DNA of 64,000 bases, taken from contig OZ242326.1 of NCBI GenBank assembly GCA_965208325.1, positions 1,888,001-1,952,000 on the forward strand, in the 5' to 3' direction. A program made the translations under genes and the position numbers. Below the pieces are notes generated by a model. The model saw only the letters and a list, made by a program, of their open reading frames with translations. It was not told the DNA's origin and did not search any database. Shown piece by piece: positions 36,649 to 61,911 of the stretch. The DNA is from Candidatus Poribacteria bacterium. Its GTDB lineage: Bacteria; Poribacteria; WGA-4E; PCPOR2b. Within the stretch, counting starts at the first letter, position 1, and each line of letters opens with the position of its first letter.

Positions 36649-36678
36649 TTGACATGCACACGATGCGCATGGTATAAT
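36649..36678 (+). promoter_or_regulatory. Consensus sigma70 promoter with an imperfect palindrome in the spacer
   Basis: TTGACA-18 bp-TATAAT with TG extension. ATGCACA-CGA-TGCGCAT at 36654-36670. Confidence 0.75.
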
Positions 36679-36715
36679 TGGATTTTATCAATGCCATATA
36701 CTCATCGGGAAAATC

Positions 36716-39700
36716 ATGTCAGCCATTTTACCAACAGACTATCCGCAGAAAATTAAAGACCTGCGCGGCACGAAGGGTTTAACGCAGACGCATTTTGCGG
36801 AGCTCGTCGGCGTCTCCTTCGCCACCGTTAACCGTTGGGAAAATGCGCAATCTCGCCCAAACAATTTGGCGTGGAAACGCATCGTTGAGTTGGCGGCGTC
36901 GAGCGACGCGGAGCAAGCGGCACAACCCGTACCCGACGACTCGCCAAGCATGGATTTTGCCGCCGACCCGAACGCGGTCTCGGCGGTTGCAGAGGCGCAC
37001 CGCTTGGCATACGGCCACCTATTTAACCCGGCGTTCGCCACGGAAACCTCGCTAATCGACCCGCTTCCGCACCAGCGCATCGCGGTTTACGAAAAGATGC
37101 TGGGGCAGAAGCCGTTACGTTTCTTGCTGGCGGACGACGCCGGCGCCGGCAAGACCATCATGACGGGTTTGTACGTCCGCGAGATGCTGTCCCGCCGGCT
37201 CATCCGCCGCGTGCTCATCGTACCGCCTGCCGGTCTCGTGGGAAACTGGGTGCAGGAGATGCGCAAGCTGTTTCGGTTGTCGTTCCGCATCATCAGGGGC
37301 GATGACGCGCGAGACGGCAACCCTTTCAGCGGCGCCGAGAGCGATCAGGTCATCGTCAGCGTGGACACCTTGGTAACGCAGCGGGTTTTTGACCGCCTTA
37401 GAGACCCTCGAACGGAGCCCTACGACCTTGCGGTCTTCGACGAGGCGCACAAGCTGTCTGCGAATCGGCTGCCGGATTTCCGGGTGCGCAAGACGAATCG
37501 GTACAGGCTGGCGGAGGCTATCGCCGGGGTTGAAGTGGACAGCGACGACTGGAAATTTCCGCAACCCGCCCAGCACCTGCTGCTGCTGACCGCGACACCG
37601 CACATGGGCAAGGACTTTCCCTACTATTACTTGTGGCGCCTGCTGCTGCCGGAAGCGCTCTCGACCTATGACGCCTTCGATAGATTTCCCCGCGAACTTC
37701 GAGAGCGGCATTTCATCCGCCGCACCAAGGAGGAGATGCTGCATTACAACGAGAAACCGTTGTATCCGCAGCGTAACTGCGACACGTTGAGCTACAATCT
37801 CTCGCACGGTCCTGAAGGCGAGCAGGAGCTCTACGACGAGACGACAGAATACATCCGCGACTACTACAACCGCGCGAAAGTCTTGAACCGTTCAGCCGCA
37901 CAATTGGCGATGAGCGTCTTCCAACGGCGTCTCGCCAGTTCCACCTATGCACTCATGCGATCATTCGAGCGCCGGAGAGAGAAGTTGGAAGGGATGATTG
38001 ACGACATCATGAGCGGACGGCTCACTGAGGAACAGTTCGCCAGCCAGCAACAGCGTCTCAATGTCCCTAACGACGTATTCGATACATCAACCGCTGATGA
38101 GACCGAGGACGACCAGAACGAAGCACACGAAAATCAAGCGCTCGGCGGCACCACGGCTTTTAACCTAACCGAGTTAGCGGCGGAGAGGGGTGAGGTCGAG
38201 GCGTTGTTGAATAAGTCACGGAAATTGTTGGACGCGGGCGAGGAATCCAAATTTGAGAAACTGCGAGAAGTTCTGCGTCATCCGAACTACATCAACGAGA
38301 AATTCATCATCTTCACCGAACACCGCGACACGGCTGAGTTTCTGGTGCGCCGGTTGGAAGGTCTTGGATTCACAGATCAGGTTGCGCTTATCCACGGCGG
38401 ACTAGACTACCGCGAACGCGAGGGGCAGGTGGAGTTTTTCCGCCGTTCTGCGGAGAAAGGCGGGGCGAACTATCTCGTAGCGACAGACGCCGCGGGTGAG
38501 GGGATTAACCTCCAGTTCTGCTGGTTGATGGTGAACTACGATATCCCATGGAATCCAGCGCGGCTTGAGCAGCGCATGGGGCGAATCCATCGTTACGGCC
38601 AAAAGCACGACCCCGTGGTGATAGTTAATCTGGTTGCGGGCGGCACACGCGAGGGGCGTGTATTGAAAACGCTGCTCGATAAACTTCAGGTTATCCGAGA
38701 GCAGCTTCAATCCGACAAAGTGTTCGATGTGGTTGGGCGTCTATTTGAGGGTGTATCCATGACCGAATATCTTCGGCAGGCGCTTACCGACGATGTTGAG
38801 GACGTCACCGAGCGGTTGGAGGGCAACCTAACGGAAGACCAAGTTCGAGCACTAGCGCGAAAAGAGCAGGTTCTGTACGGCGGCGGCGGCGACGTGCGCC
38901 GCAGACTGCCGCAACTCAACGCGGAGACGGAGCAGGAAATCTATCGTCAACTGCTGCCGGGTTATGTGCGCCGTTTTGTGGAGCGCGCCGCGCCGCTGCT
39001 CGATTTGCGCATTGACGGCGACCCTGACACCGCCTTCAGCTTGATACCGAACCGACCGCGTGCGTCTGATCCCTTGCTCACCTCGCTTGAGCGGTATTCC
39101 GAGGGTGCGCGCCAGCTACTAACGGTGTACAAACCGACGAGCCGGGAAGATGCCGTCTGGATGCACCCCGGCGAGCCCGTGTTCGATTGCCTTTCAGATG
39201 CCATCCTAGAGCGGTTTGGACGCGCCGGACGACAGGGCGCCGTGTACACCGATCCCTATGCCGCCGAGGCGTATCTGTTCCACATTGCGCTGGTTTCTGT
39301 TGAACAGCGCGGCAGAGAAGACGAGATGACCGACCTGTTTGATGACCGTTCTGAGCGTGAAAACGCGCCTAAGCCGCTAGAATCACGATTGGTCGGGCTA
39401 CGCCAATCCAGCGACGGTAGCGTCACTGAACTTCCAGTCGAACACCTACTGCTGCTCAGGGGTGCGGGGGGCTTCGCGCCGAGTCGTGTGCCGCTCGCAA
39501 CCTTGGCACGCAGTATGGCTCCAGACGCCCTGGAGTTTGCCCGGGCGGAGATAGGCGAGCGACTGGCGCAGCGCCATCGACAGGGACGATTCGACGACCT
39601 TCCCTCACGTGCGGAGTCGGTCAACCGCGGCTTCGATTTTCAGGCAGCTGAACTTGCGGCTGCCCGATCCCGCCTCAACCAACTTGCACGCGAAGGAGAT

Positions 39701-40315
39701 CGGGACGCGGAGAAGGAACTTGGGGCGGTCAAGGATCGACAGCGCGGCTTAACCGCCTCCCGAAATCGGCGCCTGGCTGAACTGCGAGCCGAACCGGAAC
39801 TGATTCAGGCCGGGGATGCCGCGATCTTGGTGCATGCACTCGTGGTGCCCGTTCAGGACACGGAGGCGGTTGAGCGTTACGACGACGATGTCGAAGCCGT
39901 CGCCGTGGAGGTTGCAACCGCTTACGAGGAGCACCAAGGCGCGGTAGTCACGGATGTCTCGAAGCCTGAACTCGCGCGGCGTGCCGGTTTGATGGATTGG
40001 CCCGGCTTCGATCTCAAGTCCCGCCGTCCAGCAAATGCCGACGGTTCTGTTGAGGAGCGTGCCATTGAGGTTAAGGGGCGCGCCGGATCCGGGGATGTTC
40101 AGATGTCCGAAAATGAATGGGCGCGGGCTTGCAACCTGCGTGAAGATTATTGGCTTTACGTTGTCTTCGACTGCGCGACGCCGCGGCCGCGCTTGGTGCG
40201 AGTTCAGGACCCGTTCGCCAAATTGCTCGTCCGCAGCCGCGAATCTTTGGCGTTCACAATAACCGAGGGGGCACTCAATGAGGCGTCGGCGCCTGTTGAG
40301 GAAACAAGGAGATGA
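36716..40315 (+). CDS. XRE-HTH + SNF2-family helicase + DUF3883 nuclease domain protein
   Basis: N-terminal LTQTHFAELVGVSFATVNRWEN; LADDAGAGKT, DEAH, LTATP, QRMGRIHRYGQ; C-terminal GFDLKS...IEVKGRA..MSENEW. Confidence 0.92.
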   Translation: MSAILPTDYPQKIKDLRGTKGLTQTHFAELVGVSFATVNRWENAQSRPNNLAWKRIVELAASSDAEQAAQPVPDDSPSMDFAADPNAVSAVAEAHRLAYGHLFNPAFATETSLIDPLPHQRIAVYEKMLGQKPLRFLLADDAGAGKTIMTGLYVREMLSRRLIRRVLIVPPAGLVGNWVQEMRKLFRLSFRIIRGDDARDGNPFSGAESDQVIVSVDTLVTQRVFDRLRDPRTEPYDLAVFDEAHKLSANRLPDFRVRKTNRYRLAEAIAGVEVDSDDWKFPQPAQHLLLLTATPHMGKDFPYYYLWRLLLPEALSTYDAFDRFPRELRERHFIRRTKEEMLHYNEKPLYPQRNCDTLSYNLSHGPEGEQELYDETTEYIRDYYNRAKVLNRSAAQLAMSVFQRRLASSTYALMRSFERRREKLEGMIDDIMSGRLTEEQFASQQQRLNVPNDVFDTSTADETEDDQNEAHENQALGGTTAFNLTELAAERGEVEALLNKSRKLLDAGEESKFEKLREVLRHPNYINEKFIIFTEHRDTAEFLVRRLEGLGFTDQVALIHGGLDYREREGQVEFFRRSAEKGGANYLVATDAAGEGINLQFCWLMVNYDIPWNPARLEQRMGRIHRYGQKHDPVVIVNLVAGGTREGRVLKTLLDKLQVIREQLQSDKVFDVVGRLFEGVSMTEYLRQALTDDVEDVTERLEGNLTEDQVRALARKEQVLYGGGGDVRRRLPQLNAETEQEIYRQLLPGYVRRFVERAAPLLDLRIDGDPDTAFSLIPNRPRASDPLLTSLERYSEGARQLLTVYKPTSREDAVWMHPGEPVFDCLSDAILERFGRAGRQGAVYTDPYAAEAYLFHIALVSVEQRGREDEMTDLFDDRSERENAPKPLESRLVGLRQSSDGSVTELPVEHLLLLRGAGGFAPSRVPLATLARSMAPDALEFARAEIGERLAQRHRQGRFDDLPSRAESVNRGFDFQAAELAAARSRLNQLAREGDRDAEKELGAVKDRQRGLTASRNRRLAELRAEPELIQAGDAAILVHALVVPVQDTEAVERYDDDVEAVAVEVATAYEEHQGAVVTDVSKPELARRAGLMDWPGFDLKSRRPANADGSVEERAIEVKGRAGSGDVQMSENEWARACNLREDYWLYVVFDCATPRPRLVRVQDPFAKLLVRSRESLAFTITEGALNEASAPVEETRR

Positions 40316-40363
40316 GGGGTTTTGAAGGCTTAAAAACTTCAACCCAAACCAGATCGGTTTCGA

Positions 40364-40393
40364 TTGACGAACGATGGTGGGGTGGGGTATAGT
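40364..40393 (+). promoter_or_regulatory. Putative internal promoter
   Basis: TTGACG-18 bp-TATAGT upstream of the AGGAGGA RBS of ORF 40427. Confidence 0.5.
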
Positions 40394-40426
40394 GAACAAA
40401 AGCAAACCACTTAGGAGGAGAACACG

Positions 40427-40966
40427 ATGGATGCACTGATTGAAGGATTTAAGGTATTCGCTCCTATTGTATTGGCAATCGTTACAGTAATCGCTTTTGT
40501 GTGGAAAGTGCCAAGCAAGAAAGACATGCAAAGGGGGGACGACGCTCTCCGAGCGATGCTGAACAATCTTTCTGATAGAATTGACGCAAATTCTCGGACA
40601 ACACATGTGGAGATTACTAAACTCAATGACAAGATGGACGCAAATTCTCGGACAACACATGTGGAAATCACGAAACTCAATGAGAAGGTTGACGCAAATT
40701 CTCGGACAACGCATGCGGAGATCGCCACACTCAATGACAAGATGGACGCCAACTTCCGCACGGTCTATGACAAGATGGACGCCAACTTTCAGACAGTCTA
40801 TGCTGATATCCGTACACTGAACGGCAAGATAGAATCTTATTCTCAGGCAACCCATGAGAGGATTGACAAGGCGACGGCGGAACTCCGCGCAGACATCAAG
40901 ACGATGAATCAGAACTACATCGATCACCTAGCTCGACACGAGGAGCAGGCACTGAAAGCACGCTAA
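40427..40966 (+). CDS. Membrane-anchored coiled-coil repeat protein
   Basis: N-terminal TM helix, three 18-aa repeats DANSRTTH(V/A)EI..LN(D/E)K, two 11-aa repeats DKMDANF.TVY and a strong RBS. Confidence 0.75.
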   Translation: MDALIEGFKVFAPIVLAIVTVIAFVWKVPSKKDMQRGDDALRAMLNNLSDRIDANSRTTHVEITKLNDKMDANSRTTHVEITKLNEKVDANSRTTHAEIATLNDKMDANFRTVYDKMDANFQTVYADIRTLNGKIESYSQATHERIDKATAELRADIKTMNQNYIDHLARHEEQALKAR

Positions 40967-40985
40967 ACTCATGGCGATTGAGTTG

Positions 40986-41305
40986 TGATGGAGACCGAAA
41001 ATGGGGATGGTTAACGCAAGCGCGACCGACAGCCTCGTCCCGCGACTGCACGTGGAAGCCATCAATCTCAAACCCGAAGCGAAACGGACGTACCTTTTGG
41101 CAGATGTTACGGAAAATCAGATTGATATTGCAGTTGCACGAATTGAATTTATGGGTGAAATTGTATGGGCACCGCGCTATGTGGAGAGGAAAACATCAAG
41201 CCGCTGCACGGCGTCACAGCGCTAGAGTCATTGGGTATCGAAATCGATCCGTTCAACCAACAACTGAAGAACCTGCCGGCGGTGCGGCTGAAGGACATCG
41301 GATGA
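40986..41305 (+). pseudogene. Degraded clan AA (retropepsin-like) aspartic protease
   Basis: VNASATDSLVP (expected DTG replaced by NAS), RTYLLAD, IEFMGEIV. After a frameshift near 41165 it reads GTALCGEENIKPLHGVTALESLGIEIDPFNQQLKNLPAVRLK. Confidence 0.7.
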
Positions 41306-41437
41306 TTCTGGCAGTAGCAACACGCTCTAATCGTGTGAAACTAACGGTTGAAAAATTCGGAGATTATTCCATTCGCGCGAGACCAAAGACTATATTTCAA
41401 ATTACCACGCCGGTGCGTGGGAAGGGACAACGGGACA

Positions 41438-42919
41438 ATGTTTGAGTATTATGACGGCTACCTTGGACGTCGCAATTCCATTCCAGTCAATCCGGACGAC
41501 CTTATACGGTTACGGCTGCAAGGACTGCGGTGGTTGCAAGTTGCCAAGCAGGTACCGCGCACTGATGGTGGAATCGGCATCTCCCATAACATCTTATCTC
41601 AGGCCAACCGCGTTCGGGAATCACACGAGTGGCGTATTGCACTTGATGACTACTGGCGACGGCACCATGGAAATGCACCACCACCGTTTGATGTGAAAAA
41701 ATTATTGAGTTATCCTTCAGCACCAAACGCAGAGACGTTTCAATTACCAGAACCTAATCCAGACTCAGAAACACAGACGAATTCTTCCAACGGAGGCTTT
41801 CAATCAGGCAAAGACGTTGAGGAAGATCTGGATAGCGGTGTAGAAGTCGAACGCGACGATCCAAAGCTAAAGATTGTGCGACCATTTAATCCAGAGAAAA
41901 TAAGAGTTCTGACTACCAATACAACCGTGGAACTGCTTGTTTCGCGGATTCGGCATGATGAGGTCGATTTGGAGCCTGAATTTCAGCGCTCATTCATATG
42001 GACAACTGAGCAACAAAGTCGATTGATAGAATCCCTGCTCCTGCGTATTCCAATCCCGGTGTTTTATGTGGCTGCGGATGATAAGGAAAACTGGTCTGTG
42101 GTTGACGGTGTCCAGCGAATGTTTACTATTTACAACTACGTTACAGACAAATTTTCCTTAGACAGACTCGAATATCTGGACCGAATTAATGGCAAAAGGT
42201 ATAGCGAACTTCCGCGACCGATGCAGCGCAGAATTGGCGAAACCGAACTTGTTGTGAACATCATTCAGCCAGGAACCCCCGAGGATGTGATGTTCAACAT
42301 TTTTCACCGGATTAACACCGGAGGCATGACGCTGAACGGACAGGAAATTCGGAACGCGTTACACCCCGGTCCGGTGCGAGACTATCTGAAACGGCTTGCT
42401 CAATCCGAGGAATTCCGCAAAGCAACGGACTATTCAATAAAAGAAATCAGAATGGCTGACCGAGAGTGCGTTTTGCGCTTTATAGCCTTCTATGTTGATT
42501 CGTGGCAGAAATATGGCGACAATGACCTCAACGGTTTTCTTAGTCGCACAATGACTAAAATCAACAATATGGATTCACGATACCATGAAATGCTCGCCGA
42601 AGAATTCAAGAAAGCAATGAACGCCGCTTATCGCATTTTTGGCAGGGAAGCGTTTCGCAAGCGATACGACCGAGAGGATACCCGCCGCCGACCGGTCAGT
42701 AAAGCGCTGTTTGATGCGTGGAGCGTCGAACTTGCGCGCCGTTCGCCTCAAGAAATTGATAAACTCGTGGACAAACGCGAGCAACTCATAGATTGCTTTA
42801 TAGAACTGATGAATTCAGACAGTGACTTTGACAGGGCAATCTCCTATTCAACCGGCACACCTCAGCGAGTGAAAAAACGATTCCACGCGATAGCACAATT
42901 GATTACGGAGGAGATTTGA
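41438..42919 (+). CDS. DUF262 (ParB/Srx-like) protein, Menshen NsnA-like
   Basis: PEFQRSFIW, SRLIESLLLRIPIP, VVDGVQR, IFHRINTGG..L..QEIRNA. Unassigned N-terminal extension; alternative start 41348. Confidence 0.88.
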   Translation: MFEYYDGYLGRRNSIPVNPDDLIRLRLQGLRWLQVAKQVPRTDGGIGISHNILSQANRVRESHEWRIALDDYWRRHHGNAPPPFDVKKLLSYPSAPNAETFQLPEPNPDSETQTNSSNGGFQSGKDVEEDLDSGVEVERDDPKLKIVRPFNPEKIRVLTTNTTVELLVSRIRHDEVDLEPEFQRSFIWTTEQQSRLIESLLLRIPIPVFYVAADDKENWSVVDGVQRMFTIYNYVTDKFSLDRLEYLDRINGKRYSELPRPMQRRIGETELVVNIIQPGTPEDVMFNIFHRINTGGMTLNGQEIRNALHPGPVRDYLKRLAQSEEFRKATDYSIKEIRMADRECVLRFIAFYVDSWQKYGDNDLNGFLSRTMTKINNMDSRYHEMLAEEFKKAMNAAYRIFGREAFRKRYDREDTRRRPVSKALFDAWSVELARRSPQEIDKLVDKREQLIDCFIELMNSDSDFDRAISYSTGTPQRVKKRFHAIAQLITEEI

Positions 42920-44055
42920 TGATAAGGAAAATCAAACTGTCGAATTTTAAGTGCTTTCGAAATCTGGATCTGGACTGCGCTCCGCTTACACTATTATGCG
43001 GTTTGAACGGCATGGGAAAAAGTACTGTTATCCAAGCGCTGCTCGTCCTTCGACAGTCGATAGAATCAGGGGACTTACTTGACGGCAGACTAGCGCTCGG
43101 CGGCGCACGCGCCGATCTCGGCACTGGACCAGACGTACTTTTTGAGGGGGCTGACATTAATAATGTTGGATTTGAAATCGAGTCTGACGGAATCAATATT
43201 CCTTGGAAACTATCGTTTCGGTATTCAAGGACGAGCAATCAATTGGCTGTTGAAAGCAGTGATTTGAATCTCTCTTCTCCCTTCGTGCCTACGGATTGGC
43301 AGCAAATCCCCCCATTCGGACATAATCTCCTGTACATTGATGCAGAACGCGTCGGTCCGAGAAAATTCCATCCACTCTCAGAAGCTGTGGCGCGTCGAGT
43401 CGACTTTGGATCAGGATGTCAATACGCCTTAAACTACCTAAGTCTAAACCGAAATATGAAGTTGCTTGAAGGCGATCCGCGTTGCGTCAACTTGCCGGAG
43501 CATCGCGAACACAGTCTAATGGCTGTCGTCAATCACTGGTTGCAAGGAGTTACCCCTGGTGTTCGCGTTAATCTTGATACTGTCCCCACCGCGGATGCCC
43601 TTATCGCCGAATACTCTTTCGATCGTCCGGGAGACGTACCTACTAAGCGTTTTCGGGCGACAAACGTCGGATTTGGTTTGTCGTATACGCTTCCGGTAAT
43701 ACTTGCGCTGCTATCTGAACCGGGCACATTGTGTTTGATAGAAAATCCAGAAGCGCACCTTCACCCGCGCGGGCAGACGAAGTTGGCGGAACTCGCGGTG
43801 CGCGCATCGTTAGCTGACGTGCAGGTGATTGTGGAAACTCACAGTGACCACTTCATGGATGGGGTGCGTATCGCTGTGCGGGACGGGTTAATCTCTCCCG
43901 ATAAAGCGGCCATCCATTACTTTGAACGCCCCGAAGGCGAGACGGTTGTGACTTCACCGCAAATTGATGAGGACGGACGGCTGTCAACATGGCCTGCCGG
44001 CTTCTTTGACCAACACGAAGAAAACTTGGAGAAACTGCTTGCCCCCAAAAACTAA
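42919..44055 (+). CDS. ABC ATPase with DUF3696, Menshen NsnB-like
   Basis: NFKCF, Walker A GLNGMGKS, NVGFGLSY, IENPEAHLHPRGQ, VETHSDH and DGRLSTWPAGFFDQ. TGATG coupling to the upstream gene. Confidence 0.9.
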   Translation: MIRKIKLSNFKCFRNLDLDCAPLTLLCGLNGMGKSTVIQALLVLRQSIESGDLLDGRLALGGARADLGTGPDVLFEGADINNVGFEIESDGINIPWKLSFRYSRTSNQLAVESSDLNLSSPFVPTDWQQIPPFGHNLLYIDAERVGPRKFHPLSEAVARRVDFGSGCQYALNYLSLNRNMKLLEGDPRCVNLPEHREHSLMAVVNHWLQGVTPGVRVNLDTVPTADALIAEYSFDRPGDVPTKRFRATNVGFGLSYTLPVILALLSEPGTLCLIENPEAHLHPRGQTKLAELAVRASLADVQVIVETHSDHFMDGVRIAVRDGLISPDKAAIHYFERPEGETVVTSPQIDEDGRLSTWPAGFFDQHEENLEKLLAPKN

Positions 44056-44056
44056 T

Positions 44057-44974
44057 ATGCGAGAGATGGTACTGAATCACGCGAGCCTTACAGCGCCCGA
44101 TTACGACACCGCGCTTTGCTGGCTGAAGGACGTCGCTATCGGGATGATTCAGCTCCGGAGCATCGCTGATCCAAGTCTGAGGATGATTCATGCTGTGCAT
44201 GAAATCGTGATACTTCCCAAGCTTTCGCTTTTCGATGCATTCAAATCATTAAGGAGTATCGGCGCACGGGAGGAGTCGGCGTTTCTCATGCGTCAAAGTT
44301 CAAAATACCCGCTTCTGAGCGACGTCGAGTCGAATGTAAGGGCTCGCTTCTTAGCGTGTGAAGGCAGACAACTTCCAGCGGAAGACTGTGAACCGCTCAT
44401 CTTATGTGCAATTGCGAATTGGATTGCCGTCGGTTTTCCGTCAGACTCTAGGTGGGATAGTGACCAACTCACAGTCAGGTTCAACGAGTTGCTTGCTGAC
44501 GAGAGAATTGAAGAAGCAGGCGAGAGGATAGATAACCTCGCTAGATCAACTCACTCCAACTCAATACGCGAGCGTCATCGTGCGGCATTCCTTGAGCATC
44601 AAACCCCTTCGGCAGTATGGGAACAAAGGGACGAGGTGTTTCCAAATCTAGTTTTTGGTCGAGATGTTAAACCACCGCCACAATTTCTCGGAAGCGCTAT
44701 GAGAAGGCTCGCCGAGCTTGACAATTCGGCGGCCGAATGGCGGGTTGTTGGAGGGACCGCACCTTGCTGGGCATGCAAAGTCACTCCCGAAAGCCAGAGC
44801 GTTAGAAACAACCCGGCGTTATTAAACGCGCGCCGATTTAGGTCAAGACACGGGACACGGGAATTGTATGAATTGCACGCCCGGATAGGTAGTGGATTCC
44901 GTATTCACCTTCGTTTCGACGCCAAAACACGAGAAGTCGAGATTGGATATATGGGGCCTCATTTGCCACTATGA
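44057..44974 (+). CDS. Putative effector with C-terminal RelE-like ribonuclease fold, Menshen NsnC-like
   Basis: C-terminal TPES..V...R.F......YELHARIGSGFRIHLRFD....VEIGYMGPHL. Third gene of the DUF262/DUF3696 operon. Confidence 0.6.
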   Translation: MREMVLNHASLTAPDYDTALCWLKDVAIGMIQLRSIADPSLRMIHAVHEIVILPKLSLFDAFKSLRSIGAREESAFLMRQSSKYPLLSDVESNVRARFLACEGRQLPAEDCEPLILCAIANWIAVGFPSDSRWDSDQLTVRFNELLADERIEEAGERIDNLARSTHSNSIRERHRAAFLEHQTPSAVWEQRDEVFPNLVFGRDVKPPPQFLGSAMRRLAELDNSAAEWRVVGGTAPCWACKVTPESQSVRNNPALLNARRFRSRHGTRELYELHARIGSGFRIHLRFDAKTREVEIGYMGPHLPL

Positions 44975-44981
44975 ATACCTT

Positions 44982-45035
44982 GAGGTCGATACACTCAATC
45001 AGCAACTGAAGAAGTTGCCATTCGTAAGGTTGAAG
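44982..45035 (+). pseudogene. Second remnant of the aspartic protease C-terminus
   Basis: EVDTLNQQLKKLPFVRLK versus EIDPFNQQLKNLPAVRLK at 41240-41293 (13/18 identical). Confidence 0.6.
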
Positions 45036-45110
45036 AAACTGCGGACGAGACGGGAAAAGAAAAAGACAAATTAATGCGATATAACTAGAGTTCGATAAAA
45101 GGGAACTTTA

Positions 45111-51263: not shown

Positions 51264-51289
51264 TACGGCACACGGAGTGTGCCTACTAC
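51264..51289. repeat. Single GTAG-family REP
   Basis: TACGGCACAC-GGA-GTGTGCC-TACTAC. Confidence 0.6.
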
Positions 51290-51337
51290 TATGGTTCAAC
51301 TGCGTAAGTGCTATCTAAATCGAATGCGGTCTTTAAC

Positions 51338-52624
51338 ATGGCGAAGATTGAAGGATTCAGAGTAAAAAATTTTATGGTGCTCAAGGATGTTACCCTCGGG
51401 CGGGTCTGGAGCAAGCGGGATCGTAAACCCCTCACCGTTATGACGGCGGTTATCGGGAAAAACGGGGTGGGCAAAAGCGCGCTGATTGATGCATTTGGGT
51501 TTCTTGCCGACGCCCTTAAATCGGGAGTTGAGGATGCTTGCCACCAACGGGGGCGCGGCGGCTTTCAGACGTTGAGGTCGCAAGGGCAAACTGGTCCCAT
51601 TGAGTTTGAGGTTTATTACAGAGAAAGCAGCAAAACTCAGCCCATAACCTACGAGATCGCCATTGGCGAAGACCATTCCGGACGCCCATACGTCTGGGAA
51701 GAACGCCTCAGACAGGGACCAAAAGGCCGTAGATCATTTCATTTTTTGTATCTCAAGTATGGCAGAGGGATGGCATTGAAGGGCACACAAACAGGCCGCC
51801 AAATTGACGAAAAAATTGAACAAATTGATCTTGCAAGTTGCGCGAATTCAATTACGGCAGATGAATCTAGTGAGACTGAAACGGTCGAATTGAGAGACGG
51901 GCGTCAACTCGGCATTACGTCGCTCGGTGCCCTGAAGCAGCATCCGAGAATTTCCGATTTTCGCCAATTTATTGAGGGATGGTATCTCAGCTACTTCAGG
52001 CCGGACGCAGCACGCAGCCTGCCACTCGCTGGGCCGCAACCACATCTCAATACGCGCGGAGACAACCTCGGCAATGTCGTGCAATTTATGGAACGCGAAC
52101 ATCCGCGGCGTTTCAAGAAACTCTTGAACGGCATCGCAGAGAAGATACCCGGCATAGACCGGATTGACACGGTAAAAACCACTGACGGAAGGCTCCTACT
52201 CCGATTCAACGACAAGGGATTTACCGATCCCTTTTACGCCCAGCAGGTGTCCGACGGTACGCTCAAGGTCTTCGCTTACCTGCTGCTGCTGGCGGATCCG
52301 AAACCGCCCCCGTTTCTGTGTATCGAAGAACCCGAAAACGGATTATACCACAAACTATTGGAGACCTTGGCGAACGAATTCCGAGACCACACCAGTCGGG
52401 GCAACAATAGGTCGCAGGTCTTTGTCACTACCCATCAACCGTACTTCGTTGATGCGCTCGATCCAGCGGAGGTCTGGATTCTAGAGAAGGGTGCGGACGG
52501 CTTTTCGACAATTCGACGGGCAAGCGACGATCCAATCGTAAGCAACATGGTCGCCGAGGGATTGCCGTTGGGGGGCCTCTGGTACAGCAACTATCTGGAC
52601 GCGAGGCAATTCGATGCACTTTGA
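51338..52624 (+). CDS. AAA_21/ABC ATPase
   Basis: Walker A GKNGVGKS, signature SDGTLK, IEEPENGL and TTHQP. Confidence 0.9.
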   Translation: MAKIEGFRVKNFMVLKDVTLGRVWSKRDRKPLTVMTAVIGKNGVGKSALIDAFGFLADALKSGVEDACHQRGRGGFQTLRSQGQTGPIEFEVYYRESSKTQPITYEIAIGEDHSGRPYVWEERLRQGPKGRRSFHFLYLKYGRGMALKGTQTGRQIDEKIEQIDLASCANSITADESSETETVELRDGRQLGITSLGALKQHPRISDFRQFIEGWYLSYFRPDAARSLPLAGPQPHLNTRGDNLGNVVQFMEREHPRRFKKLLNGIAEKIPGIDRIDTVKTTDGRLLLRFNDKGFTDPFYAQQVSDGTLKVFAYLLLLADPKPPPFLCIEEPENGLYHKLLETLANEFRDHTSRGNNRSQVFVTTHQPYFVDALDPAEVWILEKGADGFSTIRRASDDPIVSNMVAEGLPLGGLWYSNYLDARQFDAL

Positions 52625-53261
52625 GATTCTCGTCGAAGACCTGTCCGGAAAAAGGGCGCTTGATATTTTGATGCCGAAAATTCTCGACGAGCAGCATACA
52701 TTCAATGTAAAAAATTACCGAGGAATTGGACGTATTCCAAAAAACCTCACCGGTAATACCGTTGGCAAACGATTATTACTTCATCAACTTCCAAAGCTAC
52801 TCCGGGGGTATGGAAAAACCTTTGCTGGATACCACTCCAGCTATCCCGCAGCAGTGATTCTGGTTTGCGATTTGGATGACAAGTGTTTGAAGACATTTCG
52901 TCAGGAACTAATTGAAGTTTTGAATGCGTGCCACCCGAAACCGGAGACTCGGTTCTGCATTGCTATCGAAGAGGGTGAAGCTTGGCTGCTCGGAGATATA
53001 CCTGCAATCAAGACAGCCTACCCAAAAGCGAAGGACAATGTGTTGAATGATTACGAAAACGACTCGATTTGCGGAACTTGGGAACTTCTGGCAGACGCCG
53101 TATTTATCACTGGATCGCGTGCACTCAAAAAGCAAGCAGGGCAGGCGTTGGGCATGCAGAAATCGGCTTGGGCAGAGAACATCGCACCGCACATGGATGT
53201 AGATGCCAACGCATCCGCAAGTTTCCGGTATTTTCGGGATAAGATACGAGACCTAATCTGA
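52614..53261 (+). CDS. DUF4276 family (TOPRIM-like) protein
   Basis: ILVED.SG, VCDLDD, IAIEEGEAWLLGD and N.S.SF.YF. Overlaps the end of the ATPase gene. Confidence 0.8.
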   Translation: MHFEILVEDLSGKRALDILMPKILDEQHTFNVKNYRGIGRIPKNLTGNTVGKRLLLHQLPKLLRGYGKTFAGYHSSYPAAVILVCDLDDKCLKTFRQELIEVLNACHPKPETRFCIAIEEGEAWLLGDIPAIKTAYPKAKDNVLNDYENDSICGTWELLADAVFITGSRALKKQAGQALGMQKSAWAENIAPHMDVDANASASFRYFRDKIRDLI

Positions 53262-53334
53262 AACCGATCGTGATTTTGGTGAATTCGCCTTTTCTTAAAA
53301 GAAAAATCCTTCACCAAATGAGGATGACACGAAA

Positions 53335-56300
53335 ATGAAATCGACACCGAAACCGTGGCACGAAGTTGTTCAATTGCGCGATGATGTTAGGACCCGTGAA
53401 CTATCGCTGGCGGTGTTTGCCGCTGACCTTTACGACGTGGTGATGCAAAAGGGTAAACGCCCGGCTTACGAGAATCCTGACGAGTTTTTTGCCCTCACCT
53501 ATCCCACGTACAACCTGCGCGAACTGGTCAAGGACGTTGCCCTGCGGTTGGCGCGGCGGAGCGACAAGGCGTATCGGACACTCTCAGTCAACTACGGCGG
53601 CGGCAAGACGCACACGCTCATCACGCTCAAGCATCTGGTGGAAGACCCTACTGCATTGCCGGAGCTTCCCGCAATCGATGAGTTTGAAGCGCACATCGGA
53701 CAGAAGCCGCCATCGACTCGGTGCGCTGCGTTGTGTTTCGACAAGATTGATCTGGAAAAAGGCGTCCAAACGCTCGGTCCCGACGGTTCAGTCGCCCAAC
53801 TCAAACGTCCGTGGAGCGTGCTCGCTTATCAGATTGCTGGTTCGGACGGTCTACGACTGCTTCACGCCGATGGCAAAGATATTGAGCGAGATACGCCGCC
53901 CGCAGAACCCGTTTTATCGGAATTGCTGTCAAAGCCGCAGAGAGACAATCTCTCGACTTTAGTGCTCTTGGACGAGGTGCTGATGTACCTGCGCGATATG
54001 GTTGAAACCGACGGGAGTTGGCGCGGCCGACTGCTCAGTTTCTTCCAACACCTGACGAGTTCGGTGGTAAAGGTTGACCGTTGCGCCATGGTGGCTTCGC
54101 TGCGCGCTTCTGATCATAACAAGCACGATGACCTCGGAAAAGAGCTCCTCGCCGAGGTGTCAGATGTCTTTGGTAGACAGATGGAAGAGACTTCCAGTCC
54201 CATTAGCAAAGAGGACGTAGCGGAAGTGCTCCGTCGGCGTTTCTTCAAACCCGAGTCCATACAAGACAAGGACGCATTTCGACCTCAAGTGACCGCTGTC
54301 GTCCGCAGCATCTCCGCGCTTGATGAAGAGACGAAGAAGGCGCAGAAGGCAGAGGAGGAACGATATTTGAACAGTTATCCGTTCCATCCGGACCTCACCG
54401 AAACCTTCTACAGCCGCTGGACGCAGCTTGAAAGATTTCAACGTACCCGAGGTATCTTGCGCACCTTCGCTACGGCATTGCGAGACGCCGAAAAGTGGGA
54501 CACCGGACCGTTAATTGGGCCAAATGTTTTTCTGGCGGAGCCGGGAAAGACCGGTTTAACTGAAGCCGCGAGCGAACTCACCTCCTTTGCCAGCGTGGAT
54601 GCGACGTCGGGCCAACACCAAGAATGGGGGCCTATTCTTGAGGGCGAGTTAAAAAAAGCGGCTACCATCCAGTCTGAAACCACCGGTTTAACCGGAAGAG
54701 AGATAGAGCAGGCGGTCGTAACGGTGTTCTTGAGTTCCCAGCCAGCCGCCCACAAAGCGTTGACGCCGGAGCTGATGGTATTGATTGGCACTGCCAACCC
54801 GGACAAAATTGGGTTGGAAAAAGCGCTGCGCCGCTGGACTGAATTGTCTTGGTTTTTGGACGAACAGGAGATTGCCACCGGAGAATCCGATGCCGGCGGC
54901 GCCACAGCATTGCCTAAGGCTTGGCGGCTGGGCAATCGGCCCAACCTGCGACAGATGCATCACGCGGCATGTACGACTCGTGTTCCCCCAAGTCTTATTG
55001 ATTCAAAGATTATCGAGGCGATTGAGAAACAGAAAGAACTGGTTTCAGGCGCCTCCGCTGCTGGCGCCAAGGTGCACAAGCTACCTGAGCAACCCCGCCA
55101 TATCGCAGATGACGGCGATTTCCACTATGCGATTCTTCGTCCGAGTGCGGTCTCGGAATCCGGCAAACCGAGCGCCGAAGCCAAGCGGTTCATTAATGAA
55201 ACGACTGCGTCCGACCGACCGCGTGTGAATCGCAATGCGGTCGTGTTGGCGGTGCCCTCTAGGGATGGACTTGAAATGGCGCGGGAGCGCGTCCGCCAGT
55301 ACCTCGGTTGGGAGGAGGTTCGCGATCAACTCAAAGACCAACAGATTGATGCTATCCGCGACCAGATGCTCGTAACCGAGATGGACAAGGCACGCAGACG
55401 CATTCCAGATGCTATCAAGCAGGCGTACTCCATCGTGGTAACGGTCAACGAGAGCAATGAGATTCACGCTTTCAAAGTGGTTGTGACCGACCAACCGCTG
55501 TTTACGACCATCAAGGCGGACAAGCGAGCGCGAATCCAAGAGACAGCTATCAGCGCTGAAGCCATGATGCCGGGCGGGCCTTACGACCTGTGGCGCGACG
55601 ACGAGCAGTCGCGCCGCGTCAAGGACTTGGTCGGCGCTTTCGCACAATTCCCGAAACTGCCCAAGATGCTGCGGTCTAAGGGAATTATGGACACTGTTGT
55701 GGGCGGCGTTCAGCAGGGCATCTGGGCGGCGCGATACGCGCGTCCGGATAAGACGACGAAGACCTTTTGGCGCACGGCAATTGATGAACACGCGCTTGAT
55801 GAGTCGGGCCTTGAAGTGCTGCTGCCGGAATCGGCAACGTTGAGCGAACTGCCGTCCAATCTGCTCAAGCACCAAGAGCTGCCGGGGTTATGGCAGTCCG
55901 ACGAGATTACGGTTCAAAGCCTGTACGACTACTTCGCAGGGGGTTATGTCGTGAACATCCCCAAGGACGGTTATGAAGAGCCGCTCACCATCCCCAAATG
56001 CGATCCTGCGGTCGTTGATGCCGCAGTATCGGAAGCCGTCGAACTGGGGACGGTCTGGTTGACCAGCGGACCGGCTTCAATTCTTAATGAACCCGTGCCT
56101 GCAGGAGTGCTTAACGCCGAGGCGACCCTACGACCGCCGCCTGCCCCGATTCCTGTGAATGAGTTGATGGAGGAGGCAACCCCCCAGGCGTGGGAGGATG
56201 GCAAAACTACGGCGCTCGCCCTAGTTACTGCGCTCTCGCAAAAACGGAGTGCGACGCTGCCGTGGCAGACGGTGCGTTCGGCGATAGATGACGCTATTCG

Positions 56301-56637
56301 TGCGAAATGGCTGGCACTACGTAACGACAGCGCGTACTGGCCGTGCGACTTGACGGGGGCTCAACACGTGGTGCTTCAAGTCCCACAGACTCGGGATCCC
56401 GTTCCGCCGATTCCCCCAAAACCCGCGGGCCTCCTTGTAGCTACAGCGGATTTAGAAGCCCACGGCATTCAAGACTTAGCGGATCAGATTCCGGATATTA
56501 CAGACGCGGCGATCGGGGAGGATTTAAAATTTAACATCCGCGTTGAGCTTGGGGGTGAAACACCGCCAGATCCGGAGGCGGTGGAAAAAATCAACAGGCT
56601 GCTCGCCGAGGTGTCTGAGGACATGAAACTGGAGTGA
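53335..56637 (+). CDS. DUF499 domain AAA+ ATPase
   Basis: KPW.EVV.LR.DV, FAADL, FF.LTYPT, Walker A YGGGKTH, LLDE, VLRRR.F, SYPFHP and FQRTRG.LR. Confidence 0.92.
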   Translation: MKSTPKPWHEVVQLRDDVRTRELSLAVFAADLYDVVMQKGKRPAYENPDEFFALTYPTYNLRELVKDVALRLARRSDKAYRTLSVNYGGGKTHTLITLKHLVEDPTALPELPAIDEFEAHIGQKPPSTRCAALCFDKIDLEKGVQTLGPDGSVAQLKRPWSVLAYQIAGSDGLRLLHADGKDIERDTPPAEPVLSELLSKPQRDNLSTLVLLDEVLMYLRDMVETDGSWRGRLLSFFQHLTSSVVKVDRCAMVASLRASDHNKHDDLGKELLAEVSDVFGRQMEETSSPISKEDVAEVLRRRFFKPESIQDKDAFRPQVTAVVRSISALDEETKKAQKAEEERYLNSYPFHPDLTETFYSRWTQLERFQRTRGILRTFATALRDAEKWDTGPLIGPNVFLAEPGKTGLTEAASELTSFASVDATSGQHQEWGPILEGELKKAATIQSETTGLTGREIEQAVVTVFLSSQPAAHKALTPELMVLIGTANPDKIGLEKALRRWTELSWFLDEQEIATGESDAGGATALPKAWRLGNRPNLRQMHHAACTTRVPPSLIDSKIIEAIEKQKELVSGASAAGAKVHKLPEQPRHIADDGDFHYAILRPSAVSESGKPSAEAKRFINETTASDRPRVNRNAVVLAVPSRDGLEMARERVRQYLGWEEVRDQLKDQQIDAIRDQMLVTEMDKARRRIPDAIKQAYSIVVTVNESNEIHAFKVVVTDQPLFTTIKADKRARIQETAISAEAMMPGGPYDLWRDDEQSRRVKDLVGAFAQFPKLPKMLRSKGIMDTVVGGVQQGIWAARYARPDKTTKTFWRTAIDEHALDESGLEVLLPESATLSELPSNLLKHQELPGLWQSDEITVQSLYDYFAGGYVVNIPKDGYEEPLTIPKCDPAVVDAAVSEAVELGTVWLTSGPASILNEPVPAGVLNAEATLRPPPAPIPVNELMEEATPQAWEDGKTTALALVTALSQKRSATLPWQTVRSAIDDAIRAKWLALRNDSAYWPCDLTGAQHVVLQVPQTRDPVPPIPPKPAGLLVATADLEAHGIQDLADQIPDITDAAIGEDLKFNIRVELGGETPPDPEAVEKINRLLAEVSEDMKLE

Positions 56638-56638
56638 T

Positions 56639-59600
56639 ATGCACACGTATGATGGTGGGATTCGGCTTAGTGCTTCTGATTTAGTTAATCATCTGAGTTG
56701 CCGGCATCTGACGCAGTTGAATACGGCGGTGGCGTTGGGGGAAATGGTTGCGCCGTCACGCCACGATTCACTCTTGGAGTTGCTGCAGCAGCGGGGTGCA
56801 GACCACGAGGAGAATTATATCCGGCACCTGAAGGACCGTGGGTTGGAAATCGTGCGCATTGGCGGCGAATCCGTTCAGGACATGAACGTAAAACAGACGG
56901 AGGCAGCCATGCGCCGCGGGGCCGATGTCATCGTTCAGGGTGCGCTCGCGCACGGACGGTGGTGCGGACGCGCCGATATCCTGCGGCGCGTGGATGCGCC
57001 CAGCCGGCTCGGTAGATGGTCTTACGAGGTCTACGACACCAAGCTCTCCCGCGAGACTAAAGGCGCAACCATTCTGCAGTTATCCCTGTATACCGATCTG
57101 GTTGAGCAGATTCAGGGCGAACTCCCGGCGCAGATGTACGTGGTCGTCCCATGGACGGAATTTCAGGAAGAGCCGTACCGTACCGACGACTACGCAGCCT
57201 ACTACCGGTTGGTTCGGCACAGCCTAGAGCAGGCGTTGGACCAAGAGATACCTGCCGATACCTACCCGGATCCAAAATCTCATTGCGATATCTGCCGCTG
57301 GCAGCGCCCATGCGAACAGCGCCGGCGTAATGACGATCATCTCTGTTTGGTGGCGGGAATTTCGAACTCGCAGATTCGAGAACTTCAGTCACGCGACGTT
57401 AGCAAGACCGCAACTCTGGCGGCAGAGCCGCTACCGCTGGCTTGGCAACCGAAACGCGGCGCTAAGTGGAGTTACGAACGGGTACGAGAGCAGGCGCGCG
57501 TGCAGGTAGCGGGGCGGACTCAGAATCGACTAATCTCTGAAACGCTTGAATTAGCGCCGGACCGCGGCCTTTCCATGCTACCCGATCCGTCGCCGGGAGA
57601 CATGTTCTTCGATTTCGAGGGCGACCCGTTCGTCGGTGACGGCGGACTGGATTATCTGATTGGCCATATTGTCACCGACGCCGACGAGGTTCACCGACAC
57701 TCCGCACTTTGGGCGTTCACCCGTGCGGACGAGAAAGACAGTTTTGAGCGCTTCGTCGACATCGTGGTGGCGCGCTGGGCGGAGTATTCCGACATGCACA
57801 TCTACCACTTCGGCGGCTACGCGCCGGGGGCGATGAAGCGGTTGATGGGGCGTTATGCCACCCGCGAGGACGAGGTTGACCGGATGCTGCGTGCAGATCT
57901 TTTTGTCGATCTCTACCGCGTAATGCGCGAGGGGATTCGTGCCAGCGTGGAGAGTTATTCGCTCAGAAATATGGAGGCGTTCTACGGCTTCCAGCGCAGC
58001 GTGCCGACTAGGGAAGCACACCTGTCCAACTTCAGCATCCAGTCGGCTTTGGCGTTAGGCGATGCACCTAGTATCAGCGATTTTGACAAGGCAACCGTGG
58101 CGCGCGCTAACCGGGACCGCTGCGTCTCCGCATCACGGTTGCGCGATTGGCTTGAACAGGAACGGGAAAAACTCATCGAATCGGGCGAGGAGATTGAAAG
58201 ACCTGAAGCGGGAGACGGCGAGGCGTCGGCGAAGATTAGCGAACGCCAAGAACGGGCCGCGTCGTTATCTAAAGCCATTGCGAGGGATGTCCCAGTGGAT
58301 TCGGAGGAACGGACTGCAGAAGAGCAGGCGAGGTGGGTGCTGGCTAACCTGTTGGACTGGCACCGACGGGAGGAGAAGGCGACGTGGTGGGAGTTCTTCA
58401 GGTTGGCGGAATTGTCTGCAGAAGACTTGAGCGAGGAGCGGTCGGCACTCTCCGGCCTAGCGTTCATAGAATCGGTAGGCGGCACAACCGCAGCGCCGGT
58501 GCACCGCTACCGGTTCGAACCTCAAGAGACCGAACTGGAGGGCGGCGAGTCGCTGTATAGCTATGGCGCCAAAAGGTTTGGGACTTTAGTAAGAATTAAT
58601 CCTCAGACACGCACCGCTGACATCAAGAAACGGCGAGATACTGCGCTGTTTCACCCGACTGCTGTTTACGCTCACGACCGGGTACCGACCGAAGTGCTGG
58701 CAGACGCCCTCTTGCGCATCGGCGAACACGTTGCCGAGAACGGCATTACCGTCGGCGGCGACGATAACACTGCCAAGGATCTCTTGCTGCGGCAGCCGCC
58801 TCGCCTGGAAGGAAATCCTATCCGCCGGGCAGGAGAAACCGCTTTGCAGGCGGCTACCCGTATCGCGCCCTTGCTAGACGCGGGCGTGCTGCCGATCCAA
58901 GGGCCGCCGGGCGCGGGCAAGACTTACACCGGCGCGCGGATGATTGTTGAGCTTATCAAATCCGGCAAACAGGTCGGCATCACCGCCAACAGCCACAAGG
59001 TTATACGAAATCTTTTGGACGAGGTGATGCGCGCGGCTCAAGGACAGGACATCCCGGTCGAGGCGATCCAGAAGTGTTCTGAGGAGGACTTTGAGGCAAG
59101 TGCGTACGGCATTGCGCGGGCAACGAGCAATGCCGGCTTGTTCTCTGCGCTAGCTTTTGGGACAGAGGTTGCCGGCGGCTCAGCTTGGTTATGGAGCCGT
59201 CCGGAGGCTGCGGGCGTATTAGACGTGCTATTTATCGACGAGGCGGCACAGATGTCTCTTGCTAACGTGCTAGCGGTATCGCATGCCGCGGACAGCCTAG
59301 TTCTGTTGGGCGATCCGCAGCAGTTGGACCAACCGACTAAGGGTACGCACCCCGACGGCACCGGCGTATCGGCGCTGGCACATTTGTTGGGCGGCCGACA
59401 GACGATTGCGGAGCATCAGGGGTTGTTCCTGGAGGAGACCTGGCGGTTGCATCCTGCAATTTGTGAATTCACGTCCGACGCCTTTTACCAAGGTAGGCTG
59501 CAATCACGGCAAGGTATGGAAATTCAACAGGTCAACTCTAGCAGTCCCGTATCGGGCACGGGGCTGCGCTTGATGCCGGTGCAACACGAAGGGAATCGAA

Positions 59601-60052
59601 ATTCGTCGGTTGAAGAGGCGGAGCGAGTCGCCGAGCTGTTCCGGCGGTTGACTGACGGTACGTCCGTGTGGACAAACGACAAGGGTGAAACGCTGCCGGT
59701 GGCGACGCATGACGTGCTGATAATCACGCCCTACAACGCGCAGGTGTCGGAGTTGATGAATCGGCTGCCGGATGCCAGGATTGGGACAGTTGACAAGTTC
59801 CAGGGGCAAGAAGCCCCGGTGGTGATTTACTCGATGGCGACATCGTCGCCGGAGGATGCGCCGCGGGGAATGGAATTTCTGTATAGCCTCAACCGGCTCA
59901 ACGTCGCCACTTCGCGGGCACGCTGCGTCTGCGTATTGGCGGCATCTCCGAAACTGTTCGAACCGGAGTGCCACACGCCGCGCCAAATGAAGCTCGCCAA
60001 CGCATTCTGCCGCTACCGGGAGTTGGCTACAGAGATAACGGCGTTGGATTAA
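56639..60052 (+). CDS. TM0106 family RecB/Cas4-like nuclease fused to SF1 (DNA2/NAM7-like) helicase
   Basis: LSASDL...L.C, GRAD...YEVYDTK...LQL..Y, CDICRW..PC, FFDFEGDP, IQGPPGAGKT, IDEAAQ, GDPQQL, GTVDKFQGQE and NRLNVATSRA. Confidence 0.9.
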   Translation: MHTYDGGIRLSASDLVNHLSCRHLTQLNTAVALGEMVAPSRHDSLLELLQQRGADHEENYIRHLKDRGLEIVRIGGESVQDMNVKQTEAAMRRGADVIVQGALAHGRWCGRADILRRVDAPSRLGRWSYEVYDTKLSRETKGATILQLSLYTDLVEQIQGELPAQMYVVVPWTEFQEEPYRTDDYAAYYRLVRHSLEQALDQEIPADTYPDPKSHCDICRWQRPCEQRRRNDDHLCLVAGISNSQIRELQSRDVSKTATLAAEPLPLAWQPKRGAKWSYERVREQARVQVAGRTQNRLISETLELAPDRGLSMLPDPSPGDMFFDFEGDPFVGDGGLDYLIGHIVTDADEVHRHSALWAFTRADEKDSFERFVDIVVARWAEYSDMHIYHFGGYAPGAMKRLMGRYATREDEVDRMLRADLFVDLYRVMREGIRASVESYSLRNMEAFYGFQRSVPTREAHLSNFSIQSALALGDAPSISDFDKATVARANRDRCVSASRLRDWLEQEREKLIESGEEIERPEAGDGEASAKISERQERAASLSKAIARDVPVDSEERTAEEQARWVLANLLDWHRREEKATWWEFFRLAELSAEDLSEERSALSGLAFIESVGGTTAAPVHRYRFEPQETELEGGESLYSYGAKRFGTLVRINPQTRTADIKKRRDTALFHPTAVYAHDRVPTEVLADALLRIGEHVAENGITVGGDDNTAKDLLLRQPPRLEGNPIRRAGETALQAATRIAPLLDAGVLPIQGPPGAGKTYTGARMIVELIKSGKQVGITANSHKVIRNLLDEVMRAAQGQDIPVEAIQKCSEEDFEASAYGIARATSNAGLFSALAFGTEVAGGSAWLWSRPEAAGVLDVLFIDEAAQMSLANVLAVSHAADSLVLLGDPQQLDQPTKGTHPDGTGVSALAHLLGGRQTIAEHQGLFLEETWRLHPAICEFTSDAFYQGRLQSRQGMEIQQVNSSSPVSGTGLRLMPVQHEGNRNSSVEEAERVAELFRRLTDGTSVWTNDKGETLPVATHDVLIITPYNAQVSELMNRLPDARIGTVDKFQGQEAPVVIYSMATSSPEDAPRGMEFLYSLNRLNVATSRARCVCVLAASPKLFEPECHTPRQMKLANAFCRYRELATEITALD

Positions 60053-61904: not shown

Positions 61905-61911
61905 TTAGGGT

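Follow-up and report, generated by a model that had tools for sequence, protein, structure and literature searches.

Defence modules nested in both intergenic gaps of a probable Hma system in a Candidatus Poribacteria genome

When several anti-phage systems lie inside one another in a single row of genes, do they make up one machine, or one system with others lodged in its gaps? The question is raised by a 64,000-nt stretch of DNA from a Candidatus Poribacteria bacterium (contig OZ242326.1, positions 1,888,001 to 1,952,000; hereafter the window), in which we studied a locus at 36649-60052 together with an upstream cassette that begins at 33637. A preliminary description had seen there a restriction-like scaffold of SNF2, DUF1156 and DUF499 genes with other defence modules in two slots, and the domain calls from Pfam, PADLOC and NCBIfam profile searches of the open reading frames (ORFs) of the window agreed with it. 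Gene content, gene order, a consensus promoter and the 1-nt spacing between the DUF499 gene and a TM0106-family gene were all present, every gene lying on the + strand where it had been placed. With a probability of about 85%, the scaffold is Hma (HmaA/HmaB/HmaC), also called the Type-1 DUF499-centred BREX-related system, with defence modules inserted in both of its intergenic gaps; as such, the locus is a real, intact and well-populated Hma.

The three core genes were each matched by their PADLOC models. HmaA (36716-40315; 4.1e-166 over residues 78-1152) combines an XRE-type helix-turn-helix (HTH), an SNF2 helicase and a C-terminal PD-(D/E)xK nuclease of the NOV_C/DUF3883 type (Pfam HTH_3, SNF2-rel_dom, Helicase_C and NOV_C), and is presumed to be the restriction effector. 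HmaB (47990-51178; 4e-116) is a DUF1156 N6-adenine methyltransferase (Pfam DUF1156, 65.9 bits), and HmaC (53335-56637; 1.2e-74 over model positions 4-801 of 941) is a DUF499 AAA+/STAND-like ATPase (Pfam DUF499, 64.7 bits against a cut-off of 23) that is the sole copy in the genome and belongs to a family present in 109 of 176 genomes of the phylum. No relative of HmaC with a solved structure was found at E <= 0.01. Close orthologues of HmaC, 75-93% identical over the full length (the next best reached 39%), occurred in 10 genomes, and we compared 40 kb around each of these genes (24.8 kb for G019, at a contig end), with PADLOC annotation of 139 ORFs and Pfam annotation of 44. The order hmaA-hmaB-hmaC was kept in all ten. 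Because the DEAH motif of HmaA at residue 242, motif I (VLDPFAGGG, residue 134) and motif IV (DPPY, residue 637) of HmaB and the Walker A motif of HmaC (GGGKT, residues 88-92) were invariant in 11/11 orthologues, the core, with its catalytic motifs intact, looks functional.

The same alignments located the most variable part of the core. Residues ~481-720 of HmaB (nt ~49430-50150) had a mean pairwise identity of 0.33-0.60 across the 11 orthologues, compared with mostly 0.8-0.99 elsewhere in HmaB (range 0.73-0.99, with 0.73-0.78 flanking the region), 0.64-0.97 for HmaA and 0.60-0.92 for HmaC. We presume this to be the target-recognition region, such an insert having been described for DUF1156-type methylases (PMC12839542), and its variability suggests that near-identical scaffolds may carry different methylation motifs.

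The gap between hmaA and hmaB (slot 1, 7.7 kb) contains six genes that match a family or have a conserved homologue. Nearest to hmaA is a gene for a 179-residue protein (cc179; 40427-40966), followed by a DUF262/ParB-like protein, an ABC ATPase-DUF3696 protein and an effector that together are Menshen, the name given to NsnABC in PMC12065111 (41438-44974; PADLOC 7.7e-145, 2.5e-104 and 5e-51 for NsnA, NsnB and NsnC; Pfam GmrSD_N and DUF3696). The slot ends with a TIR-APAZ gene (45111-46457) and a short prokaryotic Argonaute (pAgo) gene (ORF 46369-47970), which are a SPARTA-type pair: the first matched PADLOC Aga_TIR-PNTD at 1.7e-72 and SPARTA chain 8fex_A at 1.5e-20, and the second matched pAgo_I at 1.3e-171 and the SPARTA short-pAgo chain 8fex_B at 5.9e-100 over its full length (residues 4-501 against 3-507). 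In the TIR domain a glutamate aligned with Glu77 of chain 8j7s_B, which we take to be the TIR catalytic residue. The gap between hmaB and hmaC (slot 2, 2.2 kb) begins with two short REP-like dispersed hairpin repeats (51214-51293, + strand, recognised by their copies in the genome) and contains an AAA_21 ABC ATPase and a DUF4276 TOPRIM-like protein (51338-53261) that are HEC-01 (PADLOC 3.3e-184 for HEC-01A, 2.2e-92 for HEC-01B), HEC being short for Hma-embedded candidate (Payne et al., bioRxiv 10.1101/2024.01.29.577857).

Family matches and in-frame ATG codons suggest later starts than those of the longest ORFs for several of these genes: 41438 rather than 41348 for NsnA, 44057 rather than 43964 for NsnC, 46465 or 46450 for pAgo and 51338 rather than 51308 for HEC-01A, the longest ORF of NsnB beginning at 42916. 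An ORF at 40978-41445 was rejected as a gene, its translation being unlike a protein and without a family match; only its last 42 codons were conserved in the congener G035, where DNA homology upstream of NsnA starts, and it is probably non-coding. The cc179 gene had been described as a coiled-coil gene, a view that we abandoned on finding an N-terminal membrane helix followed by tandem repeats of 18 residues (54 nt). Its homologues stand first in slot 1 of G026 (73% identity) and G022 (65%, with a different number of repeats), thus in 3/11 loci including the window, and it is absent from G035. Pfam and PADLOC gave just sub-threshold coiled-coil matches, and in the Atlas its look-alikes were unnamed coiled-coil clusters (0.90), a recognition under the tool's reliability mark. 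The protein may represent a new single-gene candidate among embedded genes.

Between orthologous scaffolds the core stayed constant while the cargo of both slots was exchanged, and it was at exactly these two slots that the ten scaffolds varied, as the proposed comparison of neighbourhoods had anticipated. Slot 1 ranged from 2.9 to 9.0 kb and held ten different cargo sets among the 11 loci, window included: Menshen and PDC-M71 in G035; a repeat protein, a split GajB-like helicase and AriAB-like genes in G026; a repeat protein, a 553-residue protein without an assignment, OLD/GajA-like and AriAB-like genes and a PIN protein in G022; a Cas4-like nuclease and a long pAgo in G024; Avs2 in G025; an NsnA fragment with TIR-PDC-S60 in both G027 and G019; Menshen and unassigned genes in G021; a metallophosphatase and a GHKL ATPase in G020; and a zeta-toxin-like gene, a CBASS cyclase and a 2TM effector in G028. 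Slot 2 ranged from 0.5 to 4.2 kb. HEC-01 occupied it in 4/11 loci (the window, G021, G019 and G025, the last with a truncated B gene), ParE-type pairs were found in G024 and G020, IS200-like Y1 transposases in G035, G025 (two copies) and G020, and DDE and rve transposases in G028, while G026 (491 bp, no annotated gene), G022 and G027 had no family-matched ORF there. The scaffold was 90-93% identical to that of G035, and DNA homology between the two broke solely at 40399-41319, 45018-47907, 49513-50173 and 51223-53304, stretches that correspond to the repeat-protein gene, SPARTA, the variable region of HmaB and slot 2. In base composition the cargo is foreign, which makes the nesting visible: scaffold genes had a GC content of 0.56-0.59 (0.62-0.68 at third codon positions) and cargo genes 0.47-0.52 (0.48-0.58).

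One of the repeats at the start of slot 2 recurs at other junctions. The REP-like hairpin motif had 56 genome copies at no more than one mismatch, compared with 7 for a reversed control, and the 13 nt at 51214-51226, just past hmaB, are one of its 19 exact genome copies, three of which lie within this 18-kb stretch. The motif flanks the IS200-like Y1 transposase genes in slot 2 of G035, G025 and G020, and together motif and transposases may be a route for cassette exchange; no direct repeats flanking either slot were found. Several further observations concern these elements. In G025 (L040:16120-19637) the HEC-01 pair, its B gene cut to 177 residues, lies between two IS200-like Y1 transposase genes in an arrangement that resembles a composite transposon, and a Y1_Tnp gene lies ~4 kb past the end of the window. 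A 34-nt hairpin element at 51260-51293 had 47 genome matches, some of them in regular arrays with a spacing of ~340-390 nt elsewhere on the chromosome, and its summed depth in metagenome contigs reached thousands.

Upstream of hmaA (36649-36678, + strand) lies a sigma-70 consensus promoter, TTGACA and TATAAT with an 18-nt spacer and a TG extension, that matches the consensus at 12/12 positions. Promoter-like sites as a class were not enriched in the window (14 found against 15.7 expected). The TTGACA hexamer was kept in 6/11 orthologous loci, namely those without an upstream TM0106 gene, and a core of ~10 nt within the spacer was kept with no more than two changes in 11/11 loci, so that this core may be an operator for the HTH of HmaA. 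No second exact copy of it occurred in the window, where its three matches (1.9 expected) were at chance level. An Rfam search of the whole window returned nothing except a tRNA at 21703.

The gene that follows hmaC (56639-60052) encodes a TM0106-family protein (TIGR03491, 239.8 bits against a cut-off of 97.45, residues 11-505) in which a Cas4/RecB-like nuclease and a DnaQ-like exonuclease (RNase_H_2) are fused to an Upf1-like superfamily 1 (SF1) helicase (AAA_11, AAA_12). TIGR03491 exceeded its cut-off at 11 places in 10 genomes of the phylum, and among these 11 copies four invariant cysteines, a D...DxK-type signature and a DxE motif were kept, which we would read as nuclease (the signature) and exonuclease (the DxE) motifs. 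Five copies are fused to the helicase and so found in 5/176 genomes, compared with 109/176 for the HmaC family: those of this genome and G035 start directly after hmaC, the ATG 1 nt past the stop codon in both, and those of G033, G020 (on a second contig) and G116 had no Hma parts in the DNA compared around them. The remaining six stand alone at ~510 residues. Five of these, in G022, G024, G027, G028 and G020 (PD-(D/E)xK and RNase_H_2, 491-511 residues; L036:1262-2737 and equivalents in L038, L042, L046 and L048), lie directly upstream of hmaA in 5/9 loci of one genus, a VanZ-like gene taking that place in three others, and the sixth, in G034, is without Hma. Outside the phylum, an alignment-based scan confirmed 570 loci. 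Of the best 80, at least 75 carry the full nuclease-helicase fusion, HmaB- or HmaC-like genes lie within 10 kb in two (L072 and L109), and no conserved partner emerged, the largest cluster of neighbours covering five loci. Pfam, run on 110/142 ORFs flanking outside loci, returned housekeeping, transposase and defence-type families side by side, too mixed a set for us to call these contexts defence islands. No literature on the TM0106/TIGR03491 family turned up.

Two alternatives would change what the locus is. The preliminary description had assigned the scaffold to a Gao_RL/BREX-related core, of which the BREX-related part stood, Hma being the Type-1 BREX-related (BR) system, and the Gao_RL part did not. 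In the terms of PMC12839542 Gao_RL is Type 2, and that our scaffold is a Gao_RL which has lost its DUF3780 gene is very improbable. It does have the same three enzyme classes, and the restriction-like (RL) models do match it weakly, but the NCBIfam RL equivalogs reached 81, 161 and 147 bits against cut-offs of 1200, 1000 and 1100 while the Hma models scored 250-553 bits on the same genes. The helicase ends in a PD-(D/E)xK (NOV_C) nuclease instead of a PLD/HKD domain: Pfam found no PLDc/HKD domain in it, and NF042964, the PLD-helicase test, gave 147.3 bits against a cut-off of 1100. DUF3780 (PF12635) is reported from 98% of Type-2 loci (PMC12839542), yet nothing in this genome as a whole (95.6% complete) matched it at E <= 0.1, just as no such gene had been recognised before. 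Still harder to credit is a chimeric assembly, which had been named in advance as a possible undoing of the nested layout. The short-read contigs do break at 51267-51289 (a 23-nt overlap), inside a hairpin repeat that is dispersed in the genome. Nevertheless, contigs of four runs, all from a single study that may be the source of the assembly, span 38001-58000, the interval compared, without differences and bridge every gene junction but that one, and the adjacency of hmaB to HEC-01 recurs independently in G021 and G019, as does that of hmaA to Nsn genes in other genomes. As a separate observation, low-depth contigs (~3x) from three runs of one sample join 38894 in hmaA to 50879 in hmaB with 37 other letters between, a join that may reflect a deletion variant, come from a relative or have arisen as a graph artefact.

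The other alternatives concern how the parts of the locus belong together, and the one that we regard as a serious minority possibility is that there is no shared operon, the modules having their own promoters and acting independently, with the nesting reflecting Hma gaps that tolerate insertions. A second promoter-like site, a 10/12 consensus match only (40364-40393, + strand), and a strong AGGAGG ribosome-binding site precede the ATG of cc179 at 40427, gaps of 136 and 129 nt precede TIR-APAZ and HEC-01A, and the slots hold REP-like repeats and IS200-like transposases, a sign of repeated insertion. However, most junctions are short gaps or overlaps (19 nt between pAgo and hmaB, 73 nt between HEC-01B and hmaC and 1 nt between hmaC and the TM0106 gene), no + strand terminator-like site lies between genes of the locus (such sites being no commoner than in shuffles), and 96.7% of embedded genes have the orientation of their host system in the published survey (bioRxiv 10.1101/2024.01.29.577857). 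At the opposite extreme, all genes could work as one integrated, layered machine, with modules dependent on the scaffold and TM0106 as a fourth core subunit, as had been proposed. All genes are co-directional behind one consensus promoter, the TM0106 gene starts 1 nt after hmaC in two genomes, and 7/11 of the TM0106 genes of the phylum adjoin this Hma clade, five as stand-alone genes upstream of hmaA and two as fusions downstream of hmaC. Against this, TM0106 adjoins HmaC in only 1/10 orthologous loci, 4/11 loci of the clade have no adjoining TM0106 gene, the fusions of G033, G020 and G116 have no Hma parts in the DNA compared around them, the stand-alone copy of G034 is without Hma, and 78 of the best 80 outside loci show no link; moreover, the cargo differs in nearly every scaffold, one slot can be empty, and SPARTA and Menshen have been described as self-contained. 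The integrated machine is thus improbable, and the idea of a fourth subunit fails the condition that the preliminary description had itself set, a linkage of TM0106 to homologous scaffolds. The TM0106 gene is a neighbour of Hma that is probably co-transcribed with it, not one of its subunits. Between these positions lies the somewhat less remote, if still doubtful, idea that TM0106 is a facultative auxiliary effector of the divergent Hma clade that processes DNA nicked by HmaA and was recruited twice, as a stand-alone Cas4-like/exonuclease gene directly upstream of hmaA in one genus and as a nuclease-helicase fusion after hmaC in the genus of the window; its many Hma-free copies, a widespread protein of ~1,130 residues, would then be an undescribed single-gene defence enzyme.

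Under the reading that we prefer, an Hma scaffold with inserted modules, we would picture the following, by analogy with what the literature reports for each family. HmaB would mark host DNA at a motif that its variable region determines, and HmaC with HmaA would sense, and then nick or cut, unmarked invader DNA. In the literature HmaB is likened to the BREX methylase and HmaC to BrxC, and HmaA nicks DNA and defends. The nuclease of HmaA was reported to be required against T4 (Liu et al. 2024, PMC11232893). The nested modules, self-contained in the cited work, would serve as back-up abortive-infection layers, each with a trigger of its own: SPARTA would deplete NAD+ once its guide has directed it to a target, Menshen would act through an RNase-type effector and HEC-01 through a TOPRIM nuclease. 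A model of primary and back-up effectors, the same as the layered defence that the preliminary description had inferred, was set out together with the Type-1 BR architecture in an NAR 2026 paper (PMC12839542). From the anatomy of the locus, the hmaA promoter would be the main source of transcription for the whole row, with possible auto-regulation through the HTH of HmaA and with at least one internal promoter, and the TM0106 gene would be an independent resident of the site that came to lie 1 nt from hmaC through insertion of the Hma block here or its loss elsewhere. Several points weigh against this picture. The window HmaC scored 250 bits with the PADLOC HmaC model, compared with ~1,177 bits in other genomes of the phylum; its clade is therefore divergent, and the behaviour of that clade is extrapolated. 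In the Halomonas study (PMC11232893) T4 grown on an HmaB-overexpressing host infected like wild-type T4, so that no restriction-modification-like methylase role for HmaB has been shown, and HEC-01 gave no protection in the published assay (bioRxiv 10.1101/2024.01.29.577857). The hmaA promoter is recognised solely by its match to the consensus, the placement of TM0106 genes beside this clade is not random, and the TM0106 gene of the window has no upstream region of its own, which leaves some room for a functional coupling.

The history proposed for the TM0106 gene draws on the chromosomal site, which is a defence hotspot with changing occupants because G033, G034, G020 and G021 each hold something different there. 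G033 continues from the equivalent of window 32440-33492 through 40 bp to that of 56639-62769, and so is without the 23.1-kb block at 33493-56638 (NUDIX, PD-T4-4, Hma and cargo) while retaining the TM0106-helicase gene and its glyoxalase-ankyrin-radical-SAM flank in place. At the shared site G034 has the stand-alone TM0106 gene, G020 a TM0106-helicase gene and PD-T4-4, and G021 Hma with a UvrD-like helicase and PD-T4-4_A. In the window the cassette upstream of Hma (33637-36482, + strand) comprises a NUDIX gene (33735-34280), a PD-T4-4_A ATPase (34336-35766; PADLOC 1.1e-106) and a PDC-M47B-like gene (35750-36310), all on the + strand, and is bracketed by inverted clusters of the REP-like motif at 33637-33768 and 36372-36482.

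Elsewhere in the window, we noted a Type I restriction R subunit with a YgjP-like peptidase (931-4816), a MoxR-VWA-WD40 ternary set (14215-18075) and a Schlafen/AlbA_2 protein (22101-23360) just past the tRNA at 21703, a tRNA-Asn. The stretch from 4818 to 26171 had no counterpart between the same flanks in G033. At the other end, beyond the radical-SAM flank, an AAA_15/AAA_21 ATPase gene on the - strand (63334-63993) runs off the window.

As a discovery the locus has little value, since the embedding of defence genes in Hma is already published (Payne 2024; PMC11232893; PMC12839542); the idea of cargo slots is not new, and the combination, which had been thought undescribed, includes a module that was named for this very setting. 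Embedded genes were counted in 931/1,485 Hma systems (62.7%) with at most three per gap (bioRxiv 10.1101/2024.01.29.577857), insertions were found in 66.5% of hma loci, and an AAA_21 gene pair was reported to separate hmaB from hmaC in all Halomonas loci (PMC11232893). The added value is modest and lies in the comparative series, the TM0106 question and the junction repeats. Eleven scaffolds, 75-93% identical and carrying ten different cargo sets, make a natural experiment, in which two congeners differ just by swapped cassettes and the variable region of the methylase. The lineage is suited to asking how cargo is exchanged, given the REP-like repeats and IS200-like tyrosine transposases at the junctions, whether nested modules share the regulation of the scaffold, and whether methylase specificity co-varies with anything else. 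A survey limited to three embedded genes per gap would overlook such loci. We also flag the TM0106 nuclease-helicase, uncharacterised and widely spread, as worth testing for defence.

Compared with known systems, the scaffold is closest to Hma as described by Payne et al. 2021 (PMC8565338) and in PMC11232893, with which it shares an SNF2 helicase with a PD-(D/E)xK nuclease, a DUF1156 methylase with a variable region, a DUF499 protein, the co-directional A-B-C order and defence genes between the core genes. It differs in its divergent HmaC (250 bits), in the XRE-type HTH at the N-terminus of HmaA, where the papers that we consulted give a Tudor domain and do not mention an HTH, and in having six genes in slot 1 as opposed to the survey limit of three per gap. 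Gao_RL (Type-2 BR) shares with it the DUF499, DUF1156 and helicase-nuclease genes but not the absence of PLD/HKD and DUF3780 or the scores far under the RL equivalog cut-offs. As in the published Hma-embedded candidates, HEC-01 lies between hmaB and hmaC and known systems lie between hmaA and hmaB, but the window stacks Menshen and SPARTA in one slot, and pAgo, SPARTA and Nsn do not appear in the main text of the preprint. The Menshen genes agree with those of PMC12065111 in the order and overlap of NsnA, NsnB and NsnC and differ in an extra N-terminal stretch of ~110-150 residues in NsnA, which fits the Type II of that paper. The SPARTA genes agree with 8fex in pairing, order and lengths, and differ from it in a more diverged TIR-APAZ protein (1.5e-20) and in being embedded in another system.

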